This document shows, in pieces, positions 55 to 35,688 of a stretch of 64,000 nucleotides of DNA. Each line of letters starts with the position of its first letter. The stretch's first letter is position 1. The position numbers and the translations under genes are program-made. The DNA comes from Klebsiella phage Sugarland: sequence record NC_042093.1; one strand, given 5' to 3'. The notes under the pieces were generated by a model. The model did no database searches, was not told where the DNA came from, and was given only the letters and a program-made list of their open reading frames with translations.

Positions 55-132
55 TGGTACCCACTCCCGGACTCGAACCGGGAACCCTGAAGTCTTAAGC
101 CTCATGCCTCTACCAGATTGGACCAAGTGGGT
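55..132 (-). tRNA. tRNA with anticodon UAA (Leu-type anticodon) in a short-variable-arm (type I) body
   Basis: Acceptor ACCCACT/AGTGGGT; T arm CCCGG-TTCGAGT-CCGGG; anticodon loop CTTAAGA; CCA encoded. Confidence 0.6.
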
Positions 133-282
133 ATTAATCGTTATCCAAGTAGGCTTCTATAGCCTCTAGGGCTTCTAGAGTAGAGATATTGAATCTCTCT
201 TTAAGCACTACCACTAGAGTTTCCTGATTCCAGGAATCTACGGAATTAATGTAATTCTCGATGAAATTAGAGTAGCCACCCA

Positions 283-621
283 TTATCGAATCTCCAGACC
301 TTGGAAATACCGCGGGAATGGGCTGCCTACCTCAAAGTTGATGCCCCAGTTGAGTTCCACCAGCTCTGACTTGTCTAAAAGCAGATCATTGCCTTCAAAG
401 ATGTAACCATATACAGTTGGGAACATCGCCGCTAGATCCTCCATATTGGAGTAAGCATTATGCTCTTCACGGAATTGCTCAAACTCTTCAAAGAACTTCT
501 CAAGGAAGAACTCTGGTACAATGAACGTTACAACGTCAGTGCTGTCATCAATACGATAGACCGTTGCCTGGAATAGGCCGACACCGACCAGGTTGATAGC
601 AGGAGTAGTAAAGATATCCAT
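283..621 (-). CDS. hypothetical protein (112 aa)
   Basis: ORF track; acidic small protein typical of T5 early tRNA-region ORFs. Confidence 0.5.
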   Translation of the reverse strand: MDIFTTPAINLVGVGLFQATVYRIDDSTDVVTFIVPEFFLEKFFEEFEQFREEHNAYSNMEDLAAMFPTVYGYIFEGNDLLLDKSELVELNWGINFEVGSPFPRYFQGLEIR

Positions 622-623
622 TA

Positions 624-818
624 TTAATATACCTTGATTAAAGTATTGTCAATGGTGTTCAGGAACTTAACTGCTGCGTCTCTATTAGAGAATGTCTCCA
701 GCACGATAATGTTGTTCTCAGGATCACCGTTACGCACTCGTACCTGGTACGATACAATCACTTCCCAGCGGAACCATAAAGCTCGTGGATTATATCGCAT
801 AAGAATTTTTTGATTCAT
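624..818 (-). CDS. hypothetical protein (about 64 aa; listed ORF 624..878 reads through its own promoter)
   Basis: Internal ATG at 818 preceded by GAGGG Shine-Dalgarno; the -10/-35 elements lie at 850-878. Confidence 0.45.
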   Translation of the reverse strand: MNQKILMRYNPRALWFRWEVIVSYQVRVRNGDPENNIIVLETFSNRDAAVKFLNTIDNTLIKVY

Positions 819-849
819 TTGGTAAGCCCTCTCATCAATGTATATAAAC

Positions 850-878
850 ATTATACAAGAAATAAGAGCGTTTAGCAA
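850..878 (-). promoter_or_regulatory. T5-type strong sigma70 promoter
   Basis: -35 TTGCTA (revcomp of 873-878), 17-bp spacer, -10 TATAAT (revcomp of 850-855), upstream A-tract AAAAATTCATT. Confidence 0.6.
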
Positions 879-1123
879 ATGAATTTTTCGAACTTTCGGG
901 AAAATGCCACCCTAAGTCAATGCCACTACTTGAGACGTTATAGGCAATCTATCTCAAGTTGTCTGCCCCATTGCTTTCAGTGATTTCTGCACGCAGAAAT
1001 TCTTCTTGACTGGAGGACTTTACCACGTCAAACGGCCGGAAATCGGTGGCTTATTTTATCCTGTCACCCATCACCTGCTTGTCTGAGTTTAATCAGAGAG
1101 CCTGTAACGGGCTACTTGGGATT

Positions 1124-1258
1124 TGGAAGTATCAGTTGGATTCGAACCAACGCACCGGCTAACCTAGAGATCACCAGACGTTTCCAAGTCTGCTCACTAA
1201 CGGCCAGCTGCTTTACCGTGAGCTTTAGGACTATTCAGCTCCATAAGCTATTGATACT
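1124..1258 (-). ncRNA. tRNA-like stable RNA candidate (about 135 nt)
   Basis: Canonical T arm GTTGG-TTCGAAT-CCAAC and encoded CCA. Acceptor AGTATCA/TGATACT pairs only across a 135-nt span; internal hairpin CAGAC-TTGGAAAC-GTCTG; no standard anticodon arm. Confidence 0.4.
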
Positions 1259-1265
1259 ATTAATT

Positions 1266-1343
1266 TGGTGCAACCGGTTCGATTTGAACGAACGACCCCT
1301 GGACTTTCAAACCAGTGCTCTCACCTCGCTGAGCTACAGTTGC
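1266..1343 (-). tRNA. tRNA-Phe (GAA)
   Basis: Acceptor GCAACTG/CGGTTGC; D arm TAGCTCAGCGAGGTGAGAGC; anticodon loop TTGAAAG; T loop TTCAAAT; CCA. Confidence 0.7.
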
Positions 1344-1424
1344 GTAATTCGTGCCTGCTCCTTTGAATCAAGAAGTCCACCCCGGTCTTTGGGTCTTTGC
1401 AGTACATCACGCTGCTCTGATGTT

Positions 1425-1512
1425 TGGTGGAACTTGGGAGACTACGTGCTACTCCCCTCACAGACCGGGATTCCCCGCTATCTATGATGCTTAACCGATT
1501 AGCTGAAGTCCC
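1425..1512 (-). ncRNA. tRNA-like RNA candidate (88 nt) lacking a canonical T loop
   Basis: Acceptor GGGACTT/AAGTTCC plus CCA; D-like stem; internal CGGGG-AAT-CCCG hairpin. Packed between two tRNAs with 6-12 nt spacers. Confidence 0.35.
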
Positions 1513-1518
1513 ATAATG

Positions 1519-1594
1519 TGGTAGACCGCCCGGGACTCGAACCCGGAACCTATCGCTTAAAAGGCGAGTGCTCTAACCATTGAGCTAGCGATCT
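1519..1594 (-). tRNA. tRNA-Lys (UUU)
   Basis: Acceptor AGATCGC/GCGGTCT; anticodon loop CTTTTAA; T arm CCGGG-TTCGAGT-CCCGG; CCA. Confidence 0.65.
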
Positions 1595-1824
1595 AAAATA
1601 GTGTTTACTTCCCATACATGAGCATAGCAGCTTTTCGATACTATATGGGTTTCCGCCTCTGTTAAAGCGGCTTCAAATGTATCATGTAACGTTGTACCTT
1701 CGAATTTAATACTTGAATCTCCTGTTTGGGACTCTCTTGTTACAAACGCCTTATACTTAATCATGAGTACCTCTGGTAATTGGAGCACCATCATGGATTT
1801 TAACCATGCTGCGAGGGTTTGCAA
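1585..1824 (-). CDS. hypothetical protein (79 aa)
   Basis: ORF track. Confidence 0.45.
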   Translation of the reverse strand: MQTLAAWLKSMMVLQLPEVLMIKYKAFVTRESQTGDSSIKFEGTTLHDTFEAALTEAETHIVSKSCYAHVWEVNTILDR

Positions 1825-2082
1825 GCCTCTGCCTAGTCACTCGGCCAATGATGCATTGTTTAATTAGGGCGCACCGGAGTTCCACCGATTGCTAACGCTT
1901 CACTGCAACCTAAGTCGCTGTTCTTACCCTAATACTGTATTACTGACTAGGATTTTCACCTAGACGGAGTTAGCACCGTAGCGTGTAGCGGCATACCTCT
2001 CCAAACCGGGCCACATCTTTCAATTGCGGTGGCAGTATTCCTACGCGTGCCTAGGTTAATTAAATAACCTTTTCAGTAAAAT

Positions 2083-2160
2083 TGGCGGTTCCTGCTGGAC
2101 TTGAACCAGCAACCCTCAACTTAACAAGATGCCGCTCTAACCAATTGGAGCTAAGGAACC
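2083..2160 (-). tRNA. tRNA-Asn (GUU)
   Basis: Acceptor GGTTCCT/AGGAACC; anticodon loop TTGTTAA; T arm GCTGG-TTCAAGT-CCAGC; CCA. Anticodon stem is weak. Confidence 0.55.
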
Positions 2161-2627
2161 ATAAATTGTTTTAAGCTCTCATCGTTGAGAGAAGTCAACA
2201 ACGAGGCTAAGCTCTGGTCTAGAGTTACCCATTCATGGTCTGCTTTTAATAGACCGTGGAAACTCTTTTCTGCCTTACGAACATCTAACCAAAAAGACCA
2301 GTGGTACATTTTGTAATCTCTTAAAGGTGAGTAAGTTTGATATTGAGCCAACCTTTTGTGTGGCTGAGTGGATAAGCCTAACTTAACCCTGCCCGGCCAG
2401 GCTGGATTTGTGATCGCGTAGAGGAACCCTGCTGTTCCGTCTTTGTACCCAATAGATCTGTTATACTTAATTAGCGATAAAGCAGACAGCTTTAAGCTAT
2501 AGAGCATGTTAGATCGTTTACCAAAGTTGCCAGTACCACACTTTAAACTTTCTAACAGGACTTCTCTCGTTATTTCTATAGGTTGTCCTATTAGGTTAAG
2601 ATGTTGTGTTATTTTATCTGAAAACAT
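2151..2627 (-). CDS. T5orf172 / GIY-YIG-like domain protein
   Basis: Motif GFLYAITNPAWPGRVKLGLST...RLAQYQT resembles the T5orf172 (GIY-YIG-related) domain. Confidence 0.5.
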   Translation of the reverse strand: MFSDKITQHLNLIGQPIEITREVLLESLKCGTGNFGKRSNMLYSLKLSALSLIKYNRSIGYKDGTAGFLYAITNPAWPGRVKLGLSTQPHKRLAQYQTYSPLRDYKMYHWSFWLDVRKAEKSFHGLLKADHEWVTLDQSLASLLTSLNDESLKQFMVP

Positions 2628-2643
2628 ACCTATTACCTTAAAT

Positions 2644-2724
2644 TGGTGGGAGATGGAGGACTCGAACCTCCGTGTGGTATACCCGGTCTACAGCCAGGCG
2701 CCGTCGCCGCTGAGCCAATCTCCC
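2644..2724 (-). tRNA. tRNA-Tyr (GUA) with 10-nt variable region
   Basis: Acceptor GGGAGAT/ATCTCCC; anticodon stem-loop CCTGG-CTGTAGA-CCGGG at standard positions 27-43; T arm GGAGG-TTCGAGT-CCTCC; CCA. Confidence 0.6.
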
Positions 2725-2725
2725 G

Positions 2726-2763
2726 TATTTGAAGAAGCTCTCGTGAGAACCTCTTCAAATACC
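2726..2763. repeat. 11-bp inverted repeat hairpin directly abutting the tRNA-Tyr 5' end
   Basis: GTATTTGAAGA...TCTTCAAATAC. Confidence 0.5.
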
Positions 2764-2862
2764 TCGTCGAAACGAGATATTTGCTAACTTATTGTAACTA
2801 GGGCTGACCCTTGTGTCCGAGGATACCTCTAGACGGTCATATCTCTTAGCCCAGAGAGAATT

Positions 2863-2939
2863 TGGCGCGGCTAACGGGATTCGAACCCGTGGCTCCGACG
2901 TGACAGGCCGGTATGTTGACCGCTGAACACCATAGCCGC
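2863..2939 (-). tRNA. tRNA-Asp (GUC)
   Basis: Acceptor GCGGCTA/TAGCCGC; anticodon stem-loop CCGGC-CTGTCAC-GTCGG; T arm ACGGG-TTCGAAT-CCCGT; CCA. Confidence 0.7.
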
Positions 2940-2947
2940 TTAATTTG

Positions 2948-3056
2948 TTATTCCGGTTCGTACTCCATCAGATCATCTGACTCACACGTCGGACACTCCC
3001 AATGGCATTCACTTAACTCACCGCAATCGGAACAAATGTATAACTTAACTTCATCT
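2948..3056 (-). CDS. small zinc-ribbon protein (36 aa, CxxC...CxxC)
   Basis: MEDEVKLYICSDCGELSECHWECPTCESDD; RBS AGAGGA; below the ORF-track length cutoff. Confidence 0.35.
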
Positions 3057-3091
3057 TCCATTTGCTTTTCCTCTTTCGTTTCAATATAAAT

Positions 3092-3120
3092 ATTATACTA
3101 AATTTCAGGGTACTAGGCAA
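3092..3120 (-). promoter_or_regulatory. T5-type strong sigma70 promoter
   Basis: -35 TTGCCT, 17-bp spacer, -10 TATAAT, upstream AAAAATTCATT. Confidence 0.55.
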
Positions 3121-3132
3121 ATGAATTTTTCA

Positions 3133-3348
3133 TTAATCGTCTTCTTCGTCCCATGAAAGGGAGTGCATGAAGATCGGTAGAACTGTAGGTTCTACGTCAA
3201 GCGACGGGTAGAAATAAGTTTTACCTTGAGACAGGTCAATGAACGTAGGAGTTCTACCCTCCTGCATGTGTTCATCAACCTTGTCTAGGGCGTCGTTTAA
3301 CAGTTCGAAGCAGTCAGTATTCGCTCCGCAAACAACGATAAAATCCAT
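3133..3348 (-). CDS. hypothetical protein (71 aa)
   Basis: ORF track; stop overlaps the start of the downstream gene. Confidence 0.45.
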   Translation of the reverse strand: MDFIVVCGANTDCFELLNDALDKVDEHMQEGRTPTFIDLSQGKTYFYPSLDVEPTVLPIFMHSLSWDEEDD

Positions 3349-3725
3349 TAACGACCCCCGTTCGGGAAACCGGAGGCAAGCAGGAAGCGAACAACGTCTT
3401 CCAGCGACGGGCCTTCGCCATCTTCTTCTTCCAGATGGAAAGGCAGAATAGCGTACTGCATGTCAGCTGGTGCTACCGGGGTGAAAGTAGGCTCTGCGGG
3501 AGCTTCCGCCATGAACACTGCGGTTCCGTCAACCAGACGATCGATCGCTTCACAGACTTCTAGCTGCTCTTCGATCTTGGCCTCGCGTTCGCGCATCAGA
3601 GCCAGCAGTTCAGTGCGGTACTCTTCGATACGGCGGTCTAGAGACTCGATGTTATTGGACAGGTTATCCTGTACAATCATCAGGCGGACTACAGCAGAAT
3701 TTCCATTAGTTGGTCGTGTAAACAT
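3348..3725 (-). CDS. hypothetical protein (125 aa, coiled-coil)
   Basis: ORF track. Confidence 0.5.
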   Translation of the reverse strand: MFTRPTNGNSAVVRLMIVQDNLSNNIESLDRRIEEYRTELLALMREREAKIEEQLEVCEAIDRLVDGTAVFMAEAPAEPTFTPVAPADMQYAILPFHLEEEDGEGPSLEDVVRFLLASGFPNGGR

Positions 3726-3745
3726 GATATTTCCTCAGTTAATTG

Positions 3746-4018
3746 TTAGATAAAGTCGCCGGTAGAAACTACCAGTTTAATGCTTTTACGGAAGATTTCG
3801 TTCATACCGTCGTGAACCATTACTGTCCCGACCATTTTTGGAAGATAGACTTCCACGTCAATAGTTCCGTAGGGCATAGCGTGCTCGTCAGTAAGTTTAG
3901 TCCATAACTCCGGCTGAAGCTCGCAGTTATAGAACACCATCCACTCATGATCGCCATCCCATCCGTCCCAGTTAAGAACCAGTGCGGATTCAATACCTGT
4001 TGCAGTAACCTTTGACAT
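3746..4018 (-). CDS. hypothetical protein (90 aa)
   Basis: ORF track; RBS GAGAGGAG; promoter immediately upstream. Confidence 0.5.
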   Translation of the reverse strand: MSKVTATGIESALVLNWDGWDGDHEWMVFYNCELQPELWTKLTDEHAMPYGTIDVEVYLPKMVGTVMVHDGMNEIFRKSIKLVVSTGDFI

Positions 4019-4049
4019 TTGCTAACTCCTCTCATTAGTTTATGAATCT

Positions 4050-4078
4050 ATTATAGCAATTATAAGAGCGTTTAGCAA
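4050..4078 (-). promoter_or_regulatory. T5-type strong sigma70 promoter
   Basis: -35 TTGCTA, 17-bp spacer, -10 TATAAT, upstream A-tract. Confidence 0.6.
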
Positions 4079-4651
4079 ATGAATTTTTGAATTATCCGCT
4101 CCGAAGAGCGGTAATCCAGGCTTGCAGCTGTTAGTTACACTTGGTTTGAAGTTTGCGAGTCAAAGCGAAAGGGGGTCTATTCCTTACGGACGAAAGAGTT
4201 CCAAGCGCTGAGAGCTTTCAGGGACTGAAGGTTGATAGCCTCCCCGTTTCTGCAACTAACAAATCTTAACTTGAACGTTTAACGTGGGGATTGATTAGCC
4301 CCACTACACGCTAACCCCGGAAGGGATCGAACCTTCACAAGATAGACCATTTATCTCAGCCTCGTTTTCGGGTATCTTATGCAGAGTGGATGTTCTGCTT
4401 ACGCCCTTTAGGAAGCCCCGTATACCGATTCCGGCACGGCATCAACGCGCTAGGGCAATGACCGTCTAAAGTCCTAGCTTCTACATTTATACTCCTGGAC
4501 GGCATGGAGTCGATTCCCTAGACTTTTACTCAGCATTGCGCCAAAACCTGTAAAGGTAAGGATGGGGTATTCTTACGAATCTGGGATCGTCCCCATCAGA
4601 AATTACAGCTTCTCGGACGTTTGACGGCCCTGACTGAAGTCTCACTGTAAA

Positions 4652-4800
4652 TTGGTACTTGCTACTGATTTTGCACCAGCTACCATCGACGTGTAAAGAC
4701 GATGATCTCCCGATTGAGCTAAGCAAGTATTTGGTGGTCAATAGGGGGCCCGAACCCACTGGTAATGGAATCAAAGGGCGTTATGTTAACCGTTGCACTA
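4652..4800 (-). pseudogene. degenerate duplicate of the tRNA-Val/tRNA-Met block (tRNA pseudogenes)
   Basis: About 85% identical to 5227..5382, but the T arms are mutated (GCTGG-TGCAAAA-TCAGT; GTTCGGGCCCC). Confidence 0.5.
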
Positions 4801-4815
4801 CTCTTAAAAATGCCA

Positions 4816-5052
4816 TTAACTAGGTGCTATTTCTATCGGCTGAGATACATTAGGCTGTTCTAATGTATCTGGTGCTGATACAGAGAAAAGAGCCTGTAAT
4901 GCTGCAATATCGCGCTCGTAGGTATCAATACGAGTAGTAAGAGTATCTACCATTTGTTTATGGTGGGCTAAGTTATTTTGAGACTCATCTCGAAGAGCCT
5001 GAAGTTCTACAAGACGTGTTAACATAATTTCACTAAGTAAAGCATTACTCAT
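4816..5052 (-). CDS. hypothetical coiled-coil protein (78 aa)
   Basis: ORF track; RBS AGGAGAAATAA-ATG. Confidence 0.5.
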   Translation of the reverse strand: MSNALLSEIMLTRLVELQALRDESQNNLAHHKQMVDTLTTRIDTYERDIAALQALFSVSAPDTLEQPNVSQPIEIAPS

Positions 5053-5226
5053 TTATTTCTCCTAAGTTTTCGGGTTCTTCTAAACGTTTGCCTTCATGAT
5101 CTACTCGAATAACTCCGCATCCTTCGCAAATCACAACTGCACCATAACCTTCTTTGACTTCGGCTTCTATAATCAAACCAGAAAGATCACCAGTATCTCT
5201 GCTTTAACCGAAGTCTCACTGTAAAT

Positions 5227-5302
5227 TGGTACTTGCTGCTGGTTTCGAACCAGCTACCCTCGCCGTGTAAAGACGATGCTCTCCCGATTGAGCTAAGCAA
5301 GT
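5227..5302 (-). tRNA. tRNA-Val (UAC)
   Basis: Acceptor ACTTGCT/AGCAAGT; D arm GCTCAATCGGGAGAGC; anticodon stem-loop TCGTC-TTTACAC-GGCGA; T arm GCTGG-TTCGAAA-CCAGC; CCA. Confidence 0.7.
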
Positions 5303-5305
5303 ATT

Positions 5306-5382
5306 TGGTGGTCAATAGTGGACTCGAACCACTGTAGTCTCACGTATGAAGCGAGTGCATAAACCATCTCTGCCAACTGACC
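5306..5382 (-). tRNA. tRNA-Met/Ile2-type (CAU)
   Basis: Acceptor GGTCAGT/ATTGACC; anticodon stem-loop CTCGC-TTCATAC-GTGAG; T arm AGTGG-TTCGAGT-CCACT; CCA. Confidence 0.6.
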
Positions 5383-5539
5383 CAAAGAATTTGCCTCAAG
5401 AATCTTACGCTACTATTCTTCTCCTACCTATACCTGTTTTGCCCACAAAGTAAATTTGTCTAGGCCTAACAGGTAAGTACTATACTACGTACCATCGCTG
5501 GAGGATATTCCGATGAAATATCCTATAGGGGGCAAAAAT

Positions 5540-5615
5540 TGGTACTCCGAACTGGACTCGAACCAGTGTTTGGCGATTATCGGTCGCCTGTTCTAACCAA
5601 CTGAACTATCAGAGC
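5540..5615 (-). tRNA. tRNA-Ile (GAU)
   Basis: D arm GTTCAGTTGGTTAGAAC; anticodon stem-loop GGCGA-CCGATAA-TCGCC; T arm ACTGG-TTCGAGT-CCAGT; CCA. Confidence 0.7.
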
Positions 5616-5616
5616 A

Positions 5617-5775
5617 TTATTGTTCTTGCTGACGGACGCAGATTTCCTCGTCCGGGTGTATTTGAGCTATTCTAGCATCGTCCTCAGCTTCCTTGTACGT
5701 GTCATGAAAAGCCGGTGCCCAAAATACGATCTCTTTTGTGTGGGTATTAATTAGCATACCTTGATAGCGAATCAT
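5617..5775 (-). CDS. hypothetical protein (about 52 aa)
   Basis: Internal ATG with GAGGT RBS; the listed ORF 5617..5853 overlaps the upstream ORF in another frame. Confidence 0.35.
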   Translation of the reverse strand: MIRYQGMLINTHTKEIVFWAPAFHDTYKEAEDDARIAQIHPDEEICVRQQEQ

Positions 5776-5782
5776 GATTACC

Positions 5783-5977
5783 TCAACGTTTACCGTTTCG
5801 TGGTGCTCCTGGACGTCTAGCAGCCTCTGCCATTCGTTTCTTGATTTTAGCAATGTTCTCTGGTGTTTGTTCTGACTTGCGTAAGCCTGTCACGTTACAC
5901 CAGTTATCGCCATCCCAGGAAGTAATTAGCATTACTCCAGTACCCAGTACTCGTTCTGTAAAAGAGATTTTCATCAT
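5783..5977 (-). CDS. hypothetical protein (64 aa)
   Basis: ORF track. Confidence 0.35.
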   Translation of the reverse strand: MMKISFTERVLGTGVMLITSWDGDNWCNVTGLRKSEQTPENIAKIKKRMAEAARRPGAPRNGKR

Positions 5978-5990
5978 CTTCTCCTAGAAT

Positions 5991-6067
5991 TGGATGCTCC
6001 GGCAAGATTCGAACTTGCGATCTCCAGCTTATGAGACTGGCGAGGACGGCCTCTCCTCTACGGTGCA
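5991..6067 (-). tRNA. tRNA-Met/Ile2-type (CAU), second copy
   Basis: D arm GAGG-AGAGGCCGT-CCTC; anticodon stem-loop CCAGT-CTCATAA-GCTGG; T arm GCAAG-TTCGAAT-CTTGC; CCA. One A:A mismatch in the acceptor stem. Confidence 0.55.
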
Positions 6068-6069
6068 AT

Positions 6070-6144
6070 TGGCAGGGGCAACAAGAATCGAACTTGTGAC
6101 CTAAGGCTTCAGAGACCTCCGCTCTACCTACTGAGCTATACCCC
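6070..6144 (-). tRNA. tRNA-Gln (CUG)
   Basis: D arm GCTCAGTAGGTAGAGC; anticodon stem-loop GAGGT-CTCTGAA-GCCTT; T arm ACAAG-TTCGATT-CTTGT; CCA. Acceptor pairing is imperfect. Confidence 0.5.
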
Positions 6145-6153
6145 AATTATGCG

Positions 6154-6270
6154 CACTCTGCTGAGTACAACGTTGTGTCTAGGGCCAGAACATAAATGCT
6201 TGCATTTATGGGAGGCGGCTAGAAGAGGGATGTGACCCAGAGGGCTAACCTCGTCACTCTCAGCAGAGAT
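6154..6270. repeat. 10-bp inverted repeat (CTCTGCTGAG / CTCAGCAGAG) enclosing about 95 nt of non-coding sequence between tRNAs
   Basis: Seen directly in sequence. Confidence 0.5.
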
Positions 6271-6274
6271 TTTA

Positions 6275-6349
6275 TGGTACACCATCGAGGAATCGAACCT
6301 CAACCATAGAGTTCGTAGCTCTATATTCTATCCATTAAACTAATGGTGC
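6275..6349 (-). tRNA. tRNA-Arg (ACG)
   Basis: Acceptor GCACCAT/ATGGTGT; anticodon stem-loop TAGAG-CTACGAA-CTCTA; T loop TTCGATT; CCA. Confidence 0.6.
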
Positions 6350-6356
6350 AGTAACC

Positions 6357-6433
6357 TGGAGGGATATCTTGGACTCGAACCAAGATAGACTCGATCCACA
6401 ATCGAGGTCATTATCCAGTTATGATAATATCCC
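6357..6433 (-). tRNA. tRNA-His (GUG)
   Basis: Acceptor GGGATAT/ATATCCC; D stem TCAT/ATGA; anticodon stem-loop CTCGA-TTGTGGA-TCGAG; T arm CTTGG-TTCGAGT-CCAAG; CCA. Confidence 0.7.
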
Positions 6434-6434
6434 A

Positions 6435-6582
6435 AATTTGAGTACCATCGAGGGCTGATCAGACCTCCACAAATAGTATGTACATCGCACACACTATCCG
6501 GTTAGACCGCGTATTGGTACGTTGCACTTCGTGCAGCATATAACTCCAACAGGCGACTCATCGAACGATGATACTCAAATTT
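6435..6582. repeat. 17-bp inverted repeat (AAATTTGAGTAYCATCG) enclosing a structured non-coding core of about 110 nt
   Basis: Arms at 6435-6455 and 6560-6582; the interior contains TGCAC-GAA-GTGCA and other hairpins; no ORF. Confidence 0.5.
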
Positions 6583-6815
6583 GGTGGCCCTAAGAAACTC
6601 TTCCCACTAACAACTAGTTGATTACTTCTGGATTTTCGCCCAGAAAATTCTCTAGAAAGGGGCAACCGTTACTCGTCGGGCCATTGTGAATGGGCTGGTC
6701 TCTCAGCCCCGGTTACTACTTGATCCTTACGATCTGACGGCAACCACGTGCAGCGACCCTTCATATATTGTATAGTGCTCAGAAGGTCATTAGAAGCACT
6801 ACAACTTTCGTTGTT

Positions 6816-6902
6816 TGGCGGAAAGCGAAGGACTTGAACCTTCATGCCCTTTCGGACTCATCATTAGCAGTGATGCGTGGCTACCAGTTTCACCAGCTTT
6901 CC
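6816..6902 (-). tRNA. tRNA-Ser (GCU), type II
   Basis: Acceptor GGAAAGC/GCTTTCC; anticodon stem-loop CATCA-CTGCTAA-TGATG; long variable arm; T arm GAAGG-TTCAAGT-CCTTC; CCA. Confidence 0.7.
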
Positions 6903-6909
6903 AGTTGTT

Positions 6910-6994
6910 TGGCGGAGAATAAAGGAATCGAACCCTCACCGTTTCCGATGGCGACTGATTTCAAGTCAGCTTGCTCCCATGAGCACTACTCTCC
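6910..6994 (-). tRNA. tRNA-Ser (UGA), type II
   Basis: Acceptor GGAGAGT/ATTCTCC; anticodon stem-loop GCTGA-CTTGAAA-TCAGT; long variable arm; T loop TTCGATT; CCA. Confidence 0.6.
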
Positions 6995-7225
6995 AGTTAA
7001 TATTTGCTCTACTTCTTTACGGAGTTCATCAGGATCGGCATGATACGTGATTTCCCAGACGTACAGAACTCCGTTAGCACAAGCTAAGTCGAAGATCTCG
7101 CTTTCCGGTAGCACCAGCCCCATACACTTAATATGAAACTCTAGGGCTTCCTTACTCGGAAAGGTATGGACTTTACGGAACTCATTTTTCTTACGATCCA
7201 ACTGCATAATTTCTATGTTCATCAC
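6986..7225 (-). CDS. hypothetical protein (79 aa)
   Basis: ORF track. Confidence 0.5.
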   Translation of the reverse strand: MMNIEIMQLDRKKNEFRKVHTFPSKEALEFHIKCMGLVLPESEIFDLACANGVLYVWEITYHADPDELRKEVEQILTGE

Positions 7226-7239
7226 GAACTCCTGTTATT

Positions 7240-7326
7240 TGGTAGGGATGGAGGGGGTCGAACCCACACGGATATTTCACCACTAGAACCTAAATCTAGC
7301 GCGGCTGCCAATTTCGCCACATCCCC
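7240..7326 (-). tRNA. tRNA-Leu (UAG), type II
   Basis: Acceptor GGGGATG/CATCCCT; 3-bp D stem; anticodon stem-loop CTAGA-TTTAGGT-TCTAG; long variable arm; T loop TTCGACC; CCA. Confidence 0.65.
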
Positions 7327-7333
7327 ATTTGTT

Positions 7334-7409
7334 TGGTGGAGGATAACGGATTTGAACCGTTCTGATTCCCGCATTGCAAGTGCGGTGTCCACTCCCAGCA
7401 GACCCATCC
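7334..7409 (-). tRNA. tRNA-Ala (UGC)
   Basis: Anticodon stem-loop CCGCA-CTTGCAA-TGCGG; T arm AACGG-TTCAAAT-CCGTT; CCA. Acceptor has two mismatches. Confidence 0.55.
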
Positions 7410-7637
7410 CCCAATAATTTGTTAAGGCAATTAATCCGGTGCGCGTAATACCCTGAGCAATTAGCCATGCGAGGATATCCGCTCTTCACAAATACAATAC
7501 ACTCTACGCTTACCAGGCGTTTCGGAGAGCCACTCCGCTATTCTTGCAAACCCTCAGTTCAATTACCGAGCAAGCTGCAAGCGTGTTTTTTGGTTCCGGC
7601 TCTGTATCAGATTAATTCCTTAACAAACTATATAAAT

Positions 7638-7666
7638 ATTATATCAATTTGTTAAGCATTTAGCAA
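7638..7666 (-). promoter_or_regulatory. T5-type strong sigma70 promoter driving the tRNA block to its left
   Basis: -35 TTGCTA, 17-bp spacer, -10 TATAAT, upstream A-tract. Confidence 0.6.
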
Positions 7667-7742
7667 CTGAATTTTTCGGTAAATTTGGTACTCCCGACGG
7701 GGTTCGAACCCGTGTTCCCACTGTGAAAGAGTGGTGTCCTAA
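7666..7742 (-). tRNA. tRNA-Glu (UUC)
   Basis: D arm GTCTAAGCTGGTTAGGAC; anticodon stem-loop CCACT-CTTTCAC-AGTGG; T arm ACGGG-TTCGAAC-CCCGT; CCA. Confidence 0.7.
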
Positions 7743-7752
7743 CCAGCTTAGA

Positions 7753-7828
7753 CGACAGGAGCATTTTAAATTTGGCAAGGGAAGGAGGAGTTGAACCTAC
7801 CGATCTCGGAGTCAAAGGCCGATGCCGT
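7753..7828 (-). tRNA. tRNA-Gln (UUG)
   Basis: Acceptor AAGGGAA/TTCCCTT; anticodon loop CTTTGAC; T loop TTCAACT; CCA. Confidence 0.5.
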
Positions 7829-7859
7829 AACCACTTGGCTATTCCCTTTCAATACAAAT

Positions 7860-7888
7860 ATTATCTCAAATTCTAGAGCATTTAGCAA
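7860..7888 (-). promoter_or_regulatory. T5-type sigma70 promoter
   Basis: -35 TTGCTA, 17-bp spacer, -10 GATAAT, upstream A-tract. Confidence 0.5.
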
Positions 7889-7942
7889 TTGAATTTTTCA
7901 AGTATTTTGGTAGTGACCCGGCAACGCAGGTCACTATGCAAA

Positions 7943-8437
7943 CTACTCGCCGTGGTCTACACGAATGAGCGGACAAAGTTTGTCCTTCTTGTAGATTCGC
8001 ATCTTTTGGTAGATGTTACCGAAGCGAAGCTCTTCATCGCGAGCATTATACTCTTTCTGTGCTCTTTCAAAGGATTTACTCGCGTTCCATTCCTGGATCC
8101 GATCCCCTATCTTAGCGCAGGCCCAGCCGATCCCAGCTATCGCCAGCAGAATCGCTACTATCGTAGATAGTCCTGCTAGACTTAACCCTACAAGCATGTA
8201 CCAGGGAGTAATTCCCAGCTCAAAGGTGAGGCCCAAGAACGTAGATAAGATACTTCCCATCCCCAAGGAGAAGAGTACAGCAATAGCAGTTACGCCAATC
8301 TGTAGCAGGAAATACCACACTGAGTGCCAAAATAGGCTACACAAGGTGACTCTGTTGTCGTTCAGCCGATAGGTGAAAGACGCGGAAGAGAAATTAAGCC
8401 ACTTGTAGAAAAAACCTTTACGTTTAATATTCAGCAT
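7943..8437 (-). CDS. integral membrane protein (164 aa, about 4 TM helices)
   Basis: Long hydrophobic segments (VTAIAVLFSLGMGSILSTFLGL..., LVGLSLAGLSTIVAILLAIAGIGWA). Confidence 0.55.
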   Translation of the reverse strand: MLNIKRKGFFYKWLNFSSASFTYRLNDNRVTLCSLFWHSVWYFLLQIGVTAIAVLFSLGMGSILSTFLGLTFELGITPWYMLVGLSLAGLSTIVAILLAIAGIGWACAKIGDRIQEWNASKSFERAQKEYNARDEELRFGNIYQKMRIYKKDKLCPLIRVDHGE

Positions 8438-8447
8438 ATTTAGCCTA

Positions 8448-8669
8448 TTACTTGAGTTGATTGATTAGGAAAACTTGTAGCGCGATAATGAATGCGGCAT
8501 AGGAGTCAGAGCCTTTACCACCTTCGTTCTCATTAACTTCTTTTAGTAGGGCTTCAAAAGCTGCTTTGTGACGCTCATAGTGCCCTCTGACTGTCGGGCC
8601 AGCATCCTCTAACATGCCTAAAAGCATATAGTACTGGGTTTGTAATTGGGCGTCCATTAGTCCTCCCAC
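8448..8669 (-). CDS. hypothetical protein (73 aa)
   Basis: ORF track. Confidence 0.45.
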   Translation of the reverse strand: MGGLMDAQLQTQYYMLLGMLEDAGPTVRGHYERHKAAFEALLKEVNENEGGKGSDSYAAFIIALQVFLINQLK

Positions 8670-8854
8670 ACGATTTTAATCGAGAGAAGACGATTTACAG
8701 GAATGACCAGCATAGTCTCAGACCGTTTATTAAGAATTTCCAGGATATCCCCATCACGATGGAGCAGACGTTTAGGACTGATATCTGTTACTGTGGACTC
8801 TAGGACGATACCACTGTCATCCACGAAGGATACGATTGCGTTTTTAGTAGACAT
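8657..8854 (-). CDS. hypothetical protein (65 aa)
   Basis: ORF track; overlaps the downstream ORF by 13 nt (translational coupling). Confidence 0.45.
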   Translation of the reverse strand: MSTKNAIVSFVDDSGIVLESTVTDISPKRLLHRDGDILEILNKRSETMLVIPVNRLLSIKIVWED

Positions 8855-8875
8855 TTTAGTCTCCTGTTATGAAAT

Positions 8876-8950
8876 TGGTGGGCCAGGGGAGACTCTAACT
8901 CCCACTCGTTGGCTTATGAGGCCACTGCTTTAACTTTAAGCTACCGGCCC
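8876..8950 (-). tRNA. tRNA-Met/Ile2-type (CAU), third copy, isolated from the main cluster
   Basis: Acceptor GGGCCGG/CTGGCCC; anticodon loop CTCATAA; T arm GGGAG-TTAGAGT-CTCCC; CCA. Confidence 0.55.
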
Positions 8951-9378: not shown

Positions 9379-9888
9379 TTACGTGTGACCTTTCGCTGCT
9401 TGTGGAGGTAGGCCAGTTAGCTTAGTAAATCGCTTTCTAAGCCCATTATCCGATAACCCTAGCTCTTTAGCTGCCCTTGTCCATGAGTAGTTAGATACCC
9501 AATATCTAATGTCCTCCTCTGTTATTTCAGGGAATGATAGGGGTTTGCGGGTTTTGGGTATTACTCTAGTCCTGCCCAAATCTTCTAGGGTTTTATCTAT
9601 GTGGGCTTCTTGCGATAGAACCTGGAGATTACTTAGTGCAAAGTCTGTTCTTACCCTATTAATGTGATCCACTTCTAGTGGTGAATCTAATGTAGGTAAA
9701 TCTTTGAATATAAAGGCTAGTAATCGATGTACTAATAAATTTCTTTGCACACCTTTCTGCTGTAATTTGTAGCAGGGGTACCCTGCTGTATTTATAAAGT
9801 ACTTGAGGTACTTGTTAGACCTGCGAGAGAAGATACTCCCGTCTTCTCGAAGGAAGTATCCTGGGTACTGAGGTATTTCTATTAGCAT
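9379..9888 (-). CDS. HNH homing endonuclease
   Basis: EVDHINRVRTD...N HNH motif after an N-terminal NUMOD-like region; C-terminal HTH. Confidence 0.7.
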   Translation of the reverse strand: MLIEIPQYPGYFLREDGSIFSRRSNKYLKYFINTAGYPCYKLQQKGVQRNLLVHRLLAFIFKDLPTLDSPLEVDHINRVRTDFALSNLQVLSQEAHIDKTLEDLGRTRVIPKTRKPLSFPEITEEDIRYWVSNYSWTRAAKELGLSDNGLRKRFTKLTGLPPQAAKGHT

Positions 9889-9896
9889 AGTTTATG

Positions 9897-9978
9897 TGGC
9901 CGAGGCGGCAGGATTCGAACCCGCATACTCCAATTACTCGATTAACGACGGGTTAGAAGCCCGTTGAGATACGCCCCG
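9897..9978 (-). ncRNA. tRNA-like element (UCU Arg-type anticodon hairpin) with an aberrant D region
   Basis: Acceptor CGGGGCG/CGCCTCG plus CCA; T arm GCGGG-TTCGAAT-CCTGC; hairpin ACGGG-CTTCTAA-CCCGT; no D stem; 23-nt extra arm. Confidence 0.4.
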
Positions 9979-9992
9979 AATAATTCGTTTGG

Positions 9993-10169
9993 TTAATAAA
10001 GTTTAAGCGTTTTTACAACCAGATCGTGAACCTGTTCAGAATACCGGCCAACGCTCTTATGCAGCGACTCTTTAAACTCTAGAGTACGTCTAGCGATTAG
10101 CTGCTTCTGTTCAGGTGTCAGATTAGGTGCCGGACGCTCATACGGAGGAGTATGCACAGATGCCACCAT
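9993..10169 (-). CDS. hypothetical protein (58 aa)
   Basis: Unlisted small ORF, MVASVHTPPYERPAPNLTPEQKQLIARRTLEFKESLHK...; its start lies 2 nt from the stop of the upstream gene. Confidence 0.3.
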   Translation of the reverse strand: MVASVHTPPYERPAPNLTPEQKQLIARRTLEFKESLHKSVGRYSEQVHDLVVKTLKLY

Positions 10170-10171: not shown

Positions 10172-10498
10172 TTATACCTTGATAGAGTTTTTGAGACGAT
10201 CACATTCAGCGGCGAACTGTACGTTTAGGGTTTTGATTGCATCCGTACACTGATCTATTTGTTTGTCTAGAGCTTTGATAAGCCCTAGCTTCACCATATC
10301 GTAACAGGATTTCATTTCGAATGTGTAATCTCGGGTTAGCTCCCCACACAGATCAAATGTAAGATCTCCGGCGCGTAGTGTAAAGCGCTGTTGCGTACCG
10401 CCGCTGATGATTTGTTTAGCCTTAGTCAGCTCACTACGACGAGAGACCATAGACTGAATATCAGAGCGTATCTTAGTTAACATACTTAAATCGTTCAT
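10172..10498 (-). CDS. hypothetical protein (108 aa)
   Basis: ORF track. Confidence 0.5.
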   Translation of the reverse strand: MNDLSMLTKIRSDIQSMVSRRSELTKAKQIISGGTQQRFTLRAGDLTFDLCGELTRDYTFEMKSCYDMVKLGLIKALDKQIDQCTDAIKTLNVQFAAECDRLKNSIKV

Positions 10499-11283
10499 AT
10501 AGACCTCGTCAATTAGTATCTTTAAGAACTCTCGTGAAAGCTCTTAAAGATACCGCCAGTAGCGAAGGACGAATCCCCTCATTAAGCGTCTCATTGGTAC
10601 GCACTACTGTCAGACGTATCTTCCAGTTATAGTCAAGGTGACTAATATACCTTGCCAGATCCCGGCCAACAGATATCCGTTGGCTAATGCGGTCTAGGCG
10701 AGGGCACACTCCAAACAGGGGCACTTCTAGCCTGTGTAAGGGTGCTATAAATAGTGGTTATGCTTTCGCTCGGGGTGACTCCGGTCATGACTCCATTGTC
10801 ACATGCTTACACAGGGTATACGAGCTTCCGCGGAGCTGTATACTCAACCGTGTCCCACTTAGGTCTCGGAGCGACCGCTTGTACGAACGGTTATCCGAAT
10901 ACTCTTTCCCACTTAGAGTCAGGCGAGATCCCACCTCGCCAAAGTTCATACGATCATCATGCCGTATTTAAGGACTAGTTTTGGCACTTCTGGAGAGCCA
11001 TCCTCCACGCGGTCTGTTAAAATCACACCTCCGAATTTTCGATGTGAAGTTTGGCTATCTCTAGCCTTCCAGCGTATGGTCGCTTCGCACCTGCCACTCT
11101 TACGTTCAAATCGGTTTAGGTGGTGGCAACCCTCCGAAGTTCCGAGTTTGGTTGAGGCCGTCAGGTTTCCTCGTGGTTTAGCTGTTTCGTTCCCGCGAGT
11201 CTCCCAAGTCTTTCCCTGGGAGGGGAGGAGGTACTCCAGCAGCGAGTGGTTCGACAATAGAACCATCAGTTATCTAGCTCTTT

Positions 11284-11367
11284 CCGACCGCAGGATTCGA
11301 ACCTGCACTTTCCGCATCTGGGGATAGCTCCCCGCGTGCAGAAGTCTACCAATTAACTTAGGACGGC
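11284..11367 (-). ncRNA. tRNA-like element whose anticodon arm is replaced by a long imperfect hairpin; no encoded CCA
   Basis: Acceptor GCCGTCC/GGTCGGA (5 of 7 bp); D arm AAGT-TAATTGGTAG-ACTT; T arm GCAGG-TTCGAAT-CCTGC; insert TGCAC-GCG-GGGGA-GCTA-TCCCC-AGAT-GCG-GAAA-GTGCA. Confidence 0.4.
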
Positions 11368-11811
11368 AGTGTTGCTACATAAGTGATTTCGACACCCCAC
11401 TATGGTGGCAATAACCAGCACCAGACGCTATACACATGTCTCCAATTTGCAACCTAGGCAGGTCAGCGTGGGAGCTATACGAGTTTCTCAGGCTCAGCTC
11501 CCCACCTCTCCGGCAGGCCACGCACCATGCTTCATTCTGGTCGAACAAGTTAAAGTGAGATTCCACCATTTTTCTACAAATTAGAAGAAGAGTTTAGGAG
11601 AGTGGTTTCAGACGCCACATTTTACAAGAGATCTCTAACCTACGCCCGTCCAATACGCTCCCTGGCCGGTATCCGGACTGGATGCACGAACTTTGTCAGG
11701 TGATCACTCTTAACTCACCGATTCTATTCAACGAATCTTAATGATCGACGAGTCTTACATTAAAACAAGTTCAGCGTAATCGGCCCGCTGTTCTCTCTAA
11801 TTTATGAAACT

Positions 11812-11840
11812 ATTATATCAACTTTTTAAGCATTAGGCAA
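11812..11840 (-). promoter_or_regulatory. T5-type strong sigma70 promoter firing leftward into the 1.3-kb non-coding region
   Basis: -35 TTGCCT, 17-bp spacer, -10 TATAAT, upstream A-tract. Confidence 0.55.
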
Positions 11841-12287
11841 CTGAGATTTTAATTTATAGAACACATGGTTGCCAATTTTACTTGTTCTTTTGAAGTCCTT
11901 GTCTTTTGTCCAGTAAGGTTTAGTATCTTTACTGTGAAAGTACAAAGCTCCCTTCGTCGGATCTACTGGAAGATCCATATAGTAAACTAGTCTAGCTATC
12001 TCTTTAGCCTGTTTCCACTCTTCGTCTTTACGATCGAGTTTCTGTTTCTTTTTACCAACCCAGCTAAATTGCCCTGGTTGATAGACTACTTTACAATATG
12101 TGGACGGGAATTTTCCATAGTTAACACGATTTTTCGTTACTTGTGCAACTGCGGTCATTCCTTTAACTCCTTCCCCTCTAGCTTCAAAGTACGCATTTTT
12201 AGCTATGCACTCTATCTCATGCGCATCAATCTTTGCCTGCGCATGGAAGCTGGTGAGGATGGAGATCATTAGAATGGCTGCTTTCAT
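11826..12287 (-). CDS. secreted cell-wall hydrolase, SleB / Hydrolase_2-like
   Basis: N-terminal signal peptide MKAAILMISILTSFHAQA; conserved AKNAYFEARGEG...VAQVTKNRV...YCKVVYQPGQFSW region typical of SleB-family wall hydrolases. Confidence 0.55.
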   Translation of the reverse strand: MKAAILMISILTSFHAQAKIDAHEIECIAKNAYFEARGEGVKGMTAVAQVTKNRVNYGKFPSTYCKVVYQPGQFSWVGKKKQKLDRKDEEWKQAKEIARLVYYMDLPVDPTKGALYFHSKDTKPYWTKDKDFKRTSKIGNHVFYKLKSQLPNA

Positions 12288-12320
12288 TATTTCTCCTTTA
12301 CTCTTTGATTCAAGAATAAT

Positions 12321-12350
12321 AGTATATCAAGAAATCAGCCATTTAGTCAA
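12321..12350 (-). promoter_or_regulatory. sigma70 promoter
   Basis: -35 TTGACT, 18-bp spacer, -10 TATACT, then RBS GGAGAAATAATG. Confidence 0.45.
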
Positions 12351-33894: not shown

Positions 33895-33939
33895 CACTTG
33901 ATTCAATAGATACACCGTGATGATTTTTTAAAGTAGTTA

Positions 33940-33968
33940 TTGACATTTTCATCGCCAGGGTGTATACT
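33940..33968 (+). promoter_or_regulatory. sigma70 promoter inside the spacer between the ligase halves
   Basis: TTGACA, 17-bp spacer, TATACT. Confidence 0.5.
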
Positions 33969-34034
33969 ATTATCATTCAGTTGAGGGAAAGAAATATTTG
34001 GTGAGAGACTGAGCTAAATTCTGAAAAATTTCGA

Positions 34035-34063
34035 TTGCTTAGTCCTGATTTTCTTGCTATAAT
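34035..34063 (+). promoter_or_regulatory. T5-type sigma70 promoter inside the spacer between the ligase halves
   Basis: TTGCTT, 17-bp spacer, TATAAT, upstream AAAAATTTCGA. Confidence 0.5.
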
Positions 34064-34093
34064 ATTTATATAAATTGATGAGGAAGAAAATCA

Positions 34094-34843: not shown

Positions 34844-34845
34844 AA

Positions 34846-35604: not shown

Positions 35605-35615
35605 TTGATTTGACC

Positions 35616-35655
35616 TGAGGGGAGAGGAATTTTGTTCCTCTCCCCTTTTTCGTTT
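35616..35655 (+). terminator. rho-independent terminator
   Basis: GAGGGGAGAGGAA-TTTT-GTTCCTCTCCCC then TTTTTCG. Confidence 0.65.
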
Positions 35656-35688
35656 AAGTAGACGCTAACGCGGCGTAGAGAGTATCTT

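Follow-up and report, generated by a model that had tools for sequence, protein, structure and literature searches.

A predicted large RNA of the RNAX family in the tRNA region of Klebsiella phage Sugarland and its T5-like relatives

Introduction

GOLLD and ROOL are large phage RNAs that are encoded near tRNA islands; tRNAs sometimes lie in the GOLLD linker, and both RNAs form homo-oligomeric cages (PMC12286853). ROOL is non-essential, and the function of GOLLD and ROOL is unknown (PMC12286853). YrlA, a bacterial Y RNA, contains D and T arms like those of a tRNA but lacks an anticodon loop for decoding (PMC4201824). The present work concerns a region of about 1.3 kb on the minus strand of Klebsiella phage Sugarland (NC_042093.1), where a tRNA-like element lies within a large RNA that we assign with high confidence to the RNAX family of phage T5. 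The window, that is, the whole stretch of DNA analysed, comprises 64,000 nucleotides (nt). tRNA-shaped modules also occur within long transcripts such as MALAT1 mascRNA and the tRNA-miRNA transcripts of murine gammaherpesvirus 68 (MHV68), where they could recruit RNase P or RNase Z to define transcript ends.

RNAX is already annotated in T5, and the RNA described here is a larger relative of it. In the literature library searched, no published characterisation of RNAX or the T5 stable RNAs was found. The RNA region is 100% identical to that of Klebsiella phage Spivey (Demerecviridae, Sugarlandvirus), a T5-like phage, and is called the Spivey RNA below.

A Sugarlandvirus relative of T5 RNAX

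Positions 10515-11805 of the minus strand very probably encode a structured RNA of the RNAX family, the Sugarlandvirus ortholog of T5 RNAX. Across at least seven genera of Demerecviridae, compensatory changes specific to one strand have preserved its helices. An initial annotation, made from the bare sequence, had seen structured stable RNA here rather than protein genes, and homology to T5 rnaX, unconserved open reading frames (ORFs) and strand-specific covariation support that view. It had spoken of a locus of structured RNAs; the structured RNA stands, and the locus looks like one multi-domain gene of ~1.3 kb, not a cluster of small RNAs. The RNA and its promoter are located as follows.

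10515-11805, minus strand: predicted RNAX-family non-coding RNA of ~1291 nt, reaching from the predicted start through the terminal hairpin
11812-11840, minus strand: promoter, with -35 TTGCCT (11835-11840), a 17-nt spacer and extended -10 TGATATAAT (11812-11820)

A sensitive BLAST/blastn comparison of the region with 50,697 phage records gave matches in 524 of them, nearly all T5-like phages. The T5 match falls in 'rnaX: RNAX, stable RNA with unknown functions' (locus T5s08, 719 nt; NC_005859 / AY543070), which has promoter P 16-17 upstream and tRNA-Arg abutting downstream; the T5 record lists eight such stable RNAs within the tRNA region. A block at ~11258-11403 pairs with the 5' part of T5 rnaX, further blocks lie at the promoter/leader and the terminal hairpin, and 3'-domain blocks of Spivey also align with T5 rnaX. 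Blocks that are collinear between Spivey and its relatives are the promoter/leader and a 5' hairpin, then an A/C-rich motif and the tRNA-like region together with its flanks, and finally several motifs of the 3' part and the terminal hairpin. An ORF-poor gap of 0.6-1.4 kb separates endolysin/YqeY-like genes from tRNA-Arg(UCU) in Epseptimavirus, Tequintavirus and Sugarlandvirus, and the gap recurs at the same position in Pectobacterium phages DU_PP_V and My1, Proteus phage Stubb and Providencia phage PR1. The Spivey RNA belongs to the family by position (endolysin(/YqeY) genes before it, a P 16-17-type promoter, and tRNA-Arg(UCU) as the next RNA gene), by sequence, and by a core secondary structure of helices P2-P5 with a capped P3.

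The promoter is of the sigma-70 type, TATAAT with TG at -15/-14, and a consensus scan found 10 of 12 matches plus the TG. It aligns base for base with P 16-17, annotated upstream of rnaX in T5, and a P 16-17-type promoter is kept in all genera compared; it also resembles T5 early promoters such as PN25. Promoter spacing places the predicted transcription start at the A at 11805. Transcription through the Spivey tRNA cluster, with 22 tRNA genes at 55-8950 (ARAGORN), likewise runs on the minus strand. The strong T5-type promoter of the initial annotation is thus borne out by scan and alignment. So is its statement that GC content exceeds that of the flanking genes, at 0.49-0.53 over ~10550-11600 against 0.36-0.41 upstream (windows within 11600-12350) and mostly 0.42-0.46 downstream.

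Scans of IMG/VR, metagenomes and bacterial genomes with conserved patterns returned T5-like phages plus chance matches only; RNAX features were lacking in 16 of 44 pattern matches in IMG/VR, 6 of 17 in metagenomes and 3 of 3 in bacterial genomes. An AT-rich terminal-hairpin pattern retrieved mostly chance hairpins from IMG/VR, and the endolysin gene was rejected as an anchor for distant relatives because it is too widespread.

The conserved core and its covariation

The core fold was examined in an alignment of 19 distinct core domains (A1). The structure was written from the alignment, and the controls were pairing partners slid by 1-3 columns and 500 shuffles.

11173-11400, minus strand: conserved core domain, with P2-P5 and the tRNA-like arms
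11397-11400 with 11173-11176, minus strand: P2, GUGG with CCAC
11374-11387 with 11265-11278, minus strand: P3, 12 pairs plus conserved C·C and G·G mismatches, formed by the flanks of the tRNA-like element
11248-11264, minus strand: P4 hairpin
11240-11243 with 11181-11184, minus strand: P5, GCUG with CAGC

Paired cells make up 89.7% of the core, against 31-40% with slid partners; 22 of 47 pairs have changes on both sides, against at most 7 with slid partners, and none of the 500 shuffles reached the observed score. P3 is 99.1% paired, with compensatory changes in 8 of its 12 pairs. Paired positions hold 67 G·U cells but 4 A·C cells, so the fold exists on the transcribed strand only. This asymmetry bears on the reading of the region as a DNA-level element, such as a replication origin, a nick site or a protein-binding array, for which palindromes (GTCATGAC and the terminal inverted repeat) and a GC content unlike that of the flanks might be cited. 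A constraint that tolerates G·U and not A·C acts on one strand, the transcribed one, and a strong promoter points into the region, so that a DNA-level role is scarcely credible.

A covariance model, R1, was built from the A1 alignment. It finds full-length cores in Stubb (73.9 bits, E 2e-22) and PR1 (71.3 bits, E 1.5e-21), both outside the training set, and it scores T5 at 197.3 and Spivey at 196.6 bits, both within it. The window holds one R1 copy. When Stubb and PR1 are added (alignment A4, which was fitted to the model and hence leans towards the structure), 90.9% of cells are paired, 30 of 47 pairs have double changes, and two P2 positions show three pair types each. Covariance-model searches, and a comparative alignment setting compensatory against codon-like changes, had been proposed at the outset: Rfam provides no family for the region, while the purpose-built R1 detects the core in Stubb and PR1, and the alignment has strong strand-specific compensatory changes and no codon pattern.

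The same changes speak to decay, under which the region would consist of tRNA-gene and spacer remnants with a leftover promoter and no function. The tRNA-like element resembles a pseudo-tRNA and has been so labelled by several annotators, large segments are swapped between lineages, and the T5 deletion mutant st0 is viable without the region. However, compensatory changes keep 22-30 of the 47 core pairs intact, islands remain collinear across subfamilies whose neighbouring YqeY-like protein is only ~35-50% identical, and swapped segments give way to other hairpins, not to random sequence. Decay is therefore very improbable.

The RNAX homologs of Stubb (L150, 4200-5011) and PR1 (L149, 4225-5700) begin with the 5' pseudoknot and carry core P2-P5 at the 3' end by tRNA-Arg, which means that domain order is permuted relative to T5; in Stubb the palindromic-loop hairpin lies mid-RNA, upstream of the core. 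T-arm-like hairpins occur elsewhere in both RNAs (CUGGG-UUCAACU-CCCAG in Stubb, GAGG-UUCGAUU-CCUC in PR1), and PR1 has a 133-amino-acid (aa) ORF inserted after the core.

The C·C and G·G mismatches of P3 flank four A-U pairs and are kept in the Enterobacterales-phage lineages and, by eye, in Stubb; the Pectobacterium phages have an A-U pair in place of the C·C. Such kept mismatches suggest that P3 is more than a plain helix and offers a specific non-canonical motif or a binding site. R1 also has a weak full-length match in T5 around tRNA-Asp (L017, 6495-6681, minus strand; 15.4 bits, E 0.0024), a match that probably owes its score to the tRNA portion of R1.

Fold z-scores against dinucleotide shuffles are -0.31 for the 5' third, -2.38 for the core and -3.04 for the 3' half. 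The dense hairpins reported by the initial annotation exceed chance in the core and the 3' half, but not in the 5' third. Whole-length MAFFT alignment with RNAalifold was discarded; it misaligned the variable hairpins and gave unreliable long-range helices.

Internal reading frames

The region had been described as free of credible ORFs, and its ORFs are indeed short and unconserved, the largest between the promoter and 10500 encoding 106 aa (minus strand) and 122 aa (plus strand). Two of them are annotated as genes in the Spivey record.

10946-11266, minus strand: 106-aa ORF, hypothetical protein CPT_Spivey_115, probably a mis-annotation inside the RNA
10509-10724, minus strand: 71-aa GTG-start ORF, hypothetical protein CPT_Spivey_114, probably a mis-annotation inside the RNA, overlapping the terminal hairpin

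That these hypothetical proteins are real genes, as the GenBank record has it, would agree with the presence of the ORFs and with the ribosome-binding sites that the depositors annotated for both. It is nevertheless extremely unlikely, since in sister phages, at ~84-97% identity, the frames are broken by indels and interrupted by 2-8 premature stops. In sister Sugarlandviruses the 106-aa ORF has indels of 1, 5, 15, 28 and 42 nt and first stops at aa 40-56; the 71-aa ORF has indels of 7, 29 and 30 nt plus stops. Variable columns of the 106-aa ORF are spread over the three codon positions as 34/34/35, that is, with no codon periodicity or third-position excess. None of five ORFs tested inside the region matches a PHROG family, while the flanking 108-aa ORF does, and most other records leave the region unannotated. 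A conserved ORF with synonymous substitutions in relatives would have told against a structured RNA, but the internal ORFs are broken even among Sugarlandviruses. Whole segments are swapped between close relatives for unrelated sequence that again forms hairpins.

The tRNA-like element

The tip of P3 carries a module with the outline of a tRNA.

11283-11367, minus strand: tRNA-like module capping P3, with acceptor, D arm, 30-nt hairpin and T arm, and no CCA
11361-11367 with 11283-11289, minus strand: acceptor stem, 5' strand GCCGUCC and 3' strand respectively, with G1·A72 and U5·U68 mismatches
11343-11358, minus strand: D arm
11312-11341, minus strand: hairpin in the place of the anticodon arm, 30 nt, imperfect, with a GCUA loop
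11290-11306, minus strand: perfect T arm, GCAGG-UUCGAAU-CCUGC

The initial annotation had recognised a tRNA-shaped element with acceptor, D arm and perfect T arm, as well as the lack of an encoded CCA, and both descriptions hold (the next bases are AAAG). The anticodon arm is replaced by an imperfect hairpin as it had stated; the hairpin is not 40 nt long but 30 nt, or ~35 nt with its flanks. The Spivey module has no Rfam tRNA match at E <= 1 (gathering score 29 bits) and no ARAGORN call. In relatives it passes the Rfam tRNA threshold with 29.3-38.3 bits (38.3 in T5), and ARAGORN calls tRNA-Ser(ACU). Most relatives have a near-cloverleaf of 71-72 nt in which the 'anticodon' arm is a stem of 3-4 bp with the 6-nt loop GUAACU. 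A canonical 5-bp anticodon stem with a 7-nt loop is found neither in Spivey nor in these relatives. The D and T arms with their elbow residues are present; the T arm is 96.6-98.9% paired with covariation, the T loop reads UUCGAAU and the D loop contains GG. There is no free acceptor end bearing CCA. Both ends run into P3 through a conserved internal loop, AACACU / AAAGA, and because the acceptor ends continue in this way, no free end would arise unless the module were cut out. Compared with the module, the phage tRNAs reach at most 73% identity, and none is a close paralog.

The long hairpin in the anticodon place is found in Spivey, some sister phages and one metagenomic T5-like phage, and itself covaries. 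In Eps7, Sds2 and L044 the D, anticodon and T arms are all replaced by unrelated hairpins, Stubb and PR1 have a plain hairpin at the tip of P3, and some variants have T-stem mismatches. P3 and the internal loop AACACU / AAAGA are kept throughout these cap variants. The exchange for plain hairpins in some lineages makes the tRNA-like element an accessory part: it caps the conserved helix P3, can be replaced, and does not form the core of the RNA.

The 5' and 3' domains and the RNA ends

The core is flanked by a pseudoknot and a variable 5' domain on one side and by a longer 3' domain, ending in the terminal hairpin, on the other.

11717-11790, minus strand: 5' H-type pseudoknot, with a variable hairpin insert closed by a covarying helix
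11786-11790 with 11772-11776, minus strand: pseudoknot stem S1, CAGCG with CGCUG
11778-11784 with 11717-11723, minus strand: pseudoknot stem S2, loop GCCGAUU with AAUCGGU
11402-11716, minus strand: 5' domain of variable, lineage-specific hairpins around conserved single-stranded motifs, absent from T5
10555-11172, minus strand: 3' domain, with homologous blocks in all genera, T5 included, and Sugarlandvirus-specific insertions
within 11023-11048, minus strand: 3'-domain hairpin UCACAUC/GGUGUGA
11008-11018 with 10904-10914, minus strand: 3'-domain pairing of ACCGC(G) with GUGGG
10775-10802, minus strand: palindromic-loop hairpin, loop AGUCAUGA, with the 8-nt palindrome GUCAUGAC at 10784-10791
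10751-10761, minus strand: second AACCAC motif
10631-10643, minus strand: hairpin AGUCA-CCU-UGACU
10617-10630, minus strand: conserved motif AUAACUGGAAGAUA
10515-10554, minus strand: terminal hairpin GGUAUCUUUAAGAGC...GUUCUUAAAGAUACU, 17 pairs, 99.1% paired, 10 pairs never varying

The pseudoknot, formed by the first 90 nt, was compared in alignment A3 (12 sequences) and is 92.6% paired, against 22-41% with slid partners, and six of its pairs have double changes; S1 and S2 have one compensatory change each, both in Pectobacterium phages. In the 5' domain the motif CCUAAACUCUUCUUC at 11584-11598 is conserved, a hairpin GGUGGGGAGCU...AGCUCCCAC lies at 11468-11506, and alignments show hairpins replaced wholesale between lineages with their flanks conserved. 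The motif GGGAGCTAT had been said to recur near 11480. It does recur, at 11470-11478, though on the opposite strand; the RNA there reads the reverse complement AUAGCUCCC, which is the 3' arm of a local hairpin with GGGGAGCU, and one 9-mer inverted repeat is roughly the chance expectation for 1.3 kb.

Selected helices of the 3' domain are 94.9% paired, against 29-45% with slid partners, and five pairs have double changes; covariations are fewer here because the sequence is highly conserved. A helix between 5'-flank GGUGUCGAA and UUCACAUC was considered and is contradicted by covariation that favours the local hairpin UCACAUC/GGUGUGA. UCUUCU (~11587-11592) or CUUC (~11044-11047) may possibly pair with GGAAGA (~10619-10624).

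The palindrome GUCAUGAC occurs in all 20 representative sequences, in 15 distinct local contexts, and minimum-free-energy folding places it within a loop of 8-10 nt in 12 of the 15. The stems beneath the loop differ by lineage (GUGAC/GUCAC, AGGU/ACCU, UAGGCU/AGCCUA), and the palindrome is also present in Proteus phage Stubb. A self-complementary loop is the classic form of a kissing-loop dimerisation site, and the conserved palindrome suggests the GUCAUGAC loop as a candidate site of self-association by this route. GUCAACAC is an example of GUCAUGAC with the palindrome broken.

From T5 to the Pectobacterium phages the terminal hairpin keeps 90-97% identity, and in those phages 4-8 nt lie between its end and tRNA-Arg. 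The T5 record ends RNAX at the first base before tRNA-Arg, and this adjoining end would most simply be an RNase P cut. After the Spivey terminal hairpin no U-tract or terminator-type tail was found, and three genes follow.

10172-10498, minus strand: 108-aa ORF
9993-10169, minus strand: 58-aa ORF
9900-9978, minus strand: tRNA-Arg(UCU)-like gene

A cis-acting reading takes the region as a processing cassette, a long structured 5' leader with the sole task of delivering and processing tRNA-Arg(UCU) and, in Spivey, also two small ORFs. The tRNA-like element and the terminal hairpin would then be punctuation for RNase P or RNase E/III, and the RNA fragments stable by-products. tRNA-Arg(UCU) accompanies the RNA in all lineages examined, 4-8 nt lie between the terminal hairpin and the tRNA, the sequence of this hairpin is conserved beyond the needs of pairing, and Spivey has no terminator between the RNA and the downstream genes. 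A leader, however, has no need of 0.7-1.3 kb of covarying architecture with many helices that is retained from one subfamily to another, tRNA genes elsewhere in the cluster lack such leaders, and the core fold is kept in Stubb and PR1 despite their permuted domain order. We consider the leader explanation rather unlikely.

Dispensability and possible function

T5 st0, a sequenced viable deletion mutant, lacks wild-type positions 33,681-41,878, and with them rnaX, its promoter and tRNA-Arg; at the junction a truncated YqeY-like gene is joined to the tRNA-Asp region. Since st0 is viable without rnaX, the RNA is dispensable in the laboratory and accessory. The deleted interval also holds tRNA-Tyr and T5.076. 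Both tRNA-Tyr and 'Rad' (T5.076) have been described as counter-defence determinants in a deletable 'anti-defense island' of ~8 kb, and that preprint attributes its phenotypes to genes other than rnaX (preprint 10.1101/2023.03.15.532788).

The setting is compatible with a tRNA mimic that acts as a decoy, its elbow soaking up a defence-system anticodon nuclease, RNase P or a modification enzyme, and so complementing the spare tRNAs of the phage. The elbow residues are canonical (G18 G19, UUCGA, G53-C61), relatives pass the Rfam tRNA threshold, and T5 rnaX lies in the st0-deleted interval with tRNA-Tyr and T5.076/Rad of the anti-defence island (10.1101/2023.03.15.532788). But the anticodon arm, at which such nucleases usually act, has a canonical form in no lineage and varies from one to the next, some variants have T-stem mismatches, and in Eps7, Sds2, L044, Stubb and PR1 plain hairpins replace the module while the rest of the RNA is kept. 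With the preprint crediting its phenotypes to other genes as well, a decoy is an unlikely account of the locus.

One large multi-domain non-coding RNA with the mechanism set out next is probably the best explanation of the region as a whole. Host RNA polymerase would transcribe the RNA early and strongly from the T5-type extended -10 promoter. The 5' end would be shielded by the pseudoknot and the 3' end by the sequence-conserved hairpin, and in T5-like phages the 3' end would be made by RNase P cutting the adjacent tRNA-Arg. The mature RNA would act in trans as a folded particle, probably self-associating through the GUCAUGAC loop, in an accessory role that may concern host range, counter-defence, or tRNA- or translation-related processes. 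The trans-acting, self-associating part of this scheme is tentative, and we regard it as possible but doubtful. A bolder version sees in RNAX a third kind of 'ornate' phage RNA that assembles with itself and has no sequence relationship to GOLLD and ROOL; early in infection it would form dimers or larger assemblies through GUCAUGAC and, with its exchangeable cap, bind or sequester a host tRNA- or translation-related factor or a defence component. This extension is speculative and unlikely to be correct. A self-assembling, factor-binding particle, if real, would explain the residence of the RNA in a deletable island with counter-defence genes.

Several points weigh against a functional RNA of this kind. 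The viability of T5 st0 means that any function would be conditional, and the label 'stable RNA' for the family comes from the wording of the T5 record alone. Rfam 15, searched at E <= 1 with the region and six relatives, gave tRNA and weak unrelated matches only, with no GOLLD or ROOL. The 5' third folds no better than shuffled sequence (z -0.31), the changes that support S1, S2 and P2 each come from one or two lineages only, and the GUCAUGAC palindromic loop is missing from Providencia phage PR1. The 5' GUGG could alternatively pair with the second CCAC, at 10751-10761; data from Enterobacterales phages leave the choice of partner for GUGG (11397-11400) undecided, and Stubb and PR1 have a single downstream partner, which covaries, so the first CCAC is favoured. 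Lastly, the absence of a U-tract together with an ORF start 17 nt later makes the Spivey 3' end uncertain, and the RNA could be the leader of a longer transcript.

Neighbouring genes and similar sequences

The 108-aa ORF (10172-10498) is the next credible gene after the RNA and matches phrog_18988 (E 1.6e-53). With the 58-aa ORF it separates the RNA from tRNA-Arg in Sugarlandviruses, whereas RNA and tRNA-Arg abut in T5-like phages; the two-ORF arrangement looks like an insertion into an ancestral RNAX-tRNA-Arg unit. The tRNA-Arg(UCU)-like gene at 9900-9978 (minus strand) scores 33.3 bits with the Rfam tRNA model and is missed by ARAGORN. Its D-arm region has ~4 nt only, its variable region has a 20-nt insertion, CCA is encoded, and the acceptor stem resembles that of T5 tRNA-Arg. 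Other Sugarlandviruses have a canonical, unrelated tRNA-Arg at this place. An HNH endonuclease gene (9379-9888, minus strand) lies directly downstream in Spivey only, among the loci examined.

A second T5-type stable RNA within the window lies at 4320-4436 on the minus strand. It is 75% identical over ~116 nt to T5 'RNA1, tRNA-like stable RNA with unknown functions', and ARAGORN does not detect it. Among unrelated IMG/VR contigs, L094, L097, L107, L113, L136 and L139 have in common a hairpin GGGTCTTTTTTAAGAGTTC...GAGAGCTTTTAAACAAGAC that lies ahead of a ribosome-binding site with its ATG. This hairpin resembles the RNAX terminal hairpin, which precedes an ORF start in Spivey; the likeness may be coincidence, as the search pattern forces a hairpin.

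Comparison with known systems and significance

Hundreds of deposited T5-like genomes (524 blastn records) appear to carry a highly structured RNA of 0.6-1.4 kb, for which Rfam has no family and which annotators routinely enter as hypothetical proteins, as pseudo-tRNAs or not at all. What is new here is the evidence for the whole 1.3 kb as one conserved structured RNA across at least seven genera, together with a core fold, a covariance model, ends and domains, the view of the tRNA-like element as an exchangeable cap, a candidate self-association loop and the link to a natural deletion (T5 st0). T5 is a classic model phage, and its relatives are under development for therapy against Klebsiella, Salmonella and Escherichia coli. 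The core fold, the model, the loop and T5 st0 together make the function of RNAX directly testable.

T5 rnaX shares with the Spivey RNA its promoter type, the position after the endolysin module, the tRNA-Arg(UCU) link and the core fold, and the shared blocks are the promoter/leader, the core with the tRNA-like module, 3'-domain motifs and the terminal hairpin. T5 RNAX differs in having 719 nt, without the ~400-nt 5' domain of Spivey, and a tRNA-like module that is a near-normal cloverleaf of 72 nt, which that of Spivey is not. It abuts tRNA-Arg, whereas Spivey has two ORFs in between and extra 3'-domain insertions.

Among RNAs with tRNA-like parts, no transfer-messenger RNA (tmRNA) was found by ARAGORN or Rfam, a split tRNA-like domain and a tag reading frame not having been looked at. 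RNAX is like YrlA in being a non-coding RNA with D and T arms and no decoding anticodon loop. In YrlA a long helix replaces the anticodon side, whereas in RNAX the extension, P3, continues from the acceptor side, and Rfam models of Y-RNA type give no match at E <= 1. The tRNA-like module could also define the ends of a stable RNA, by analogy with mascRNA and the MHV68 transcripts, although those systems are eukaryotic or herpesviral.

GOLLD and ROOL are similarly phage-encoded RNAs of hundreds of nt to more than 1 kb, associated with a tRNA island and built from conserved and variable domains; the Spivey RNA has ~1291 nt and a tRNA-like module inside, and 22 ARAGORN tRNAs lie at 55-8950 of the window. 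On oligomerisation the likeness is limited to a candidate palindromic loop. RNAX differs in matching no family model at E <= 1 and in that its carriers are siphophages of Enterobacterales. GOLLD and ROOL appear to be the closest systems in lifestyle, as an analogy and not as a matter of family membership. If RNAX behaves like them, the puzzle that they pose would enter a genetically tractable E. coli phage.

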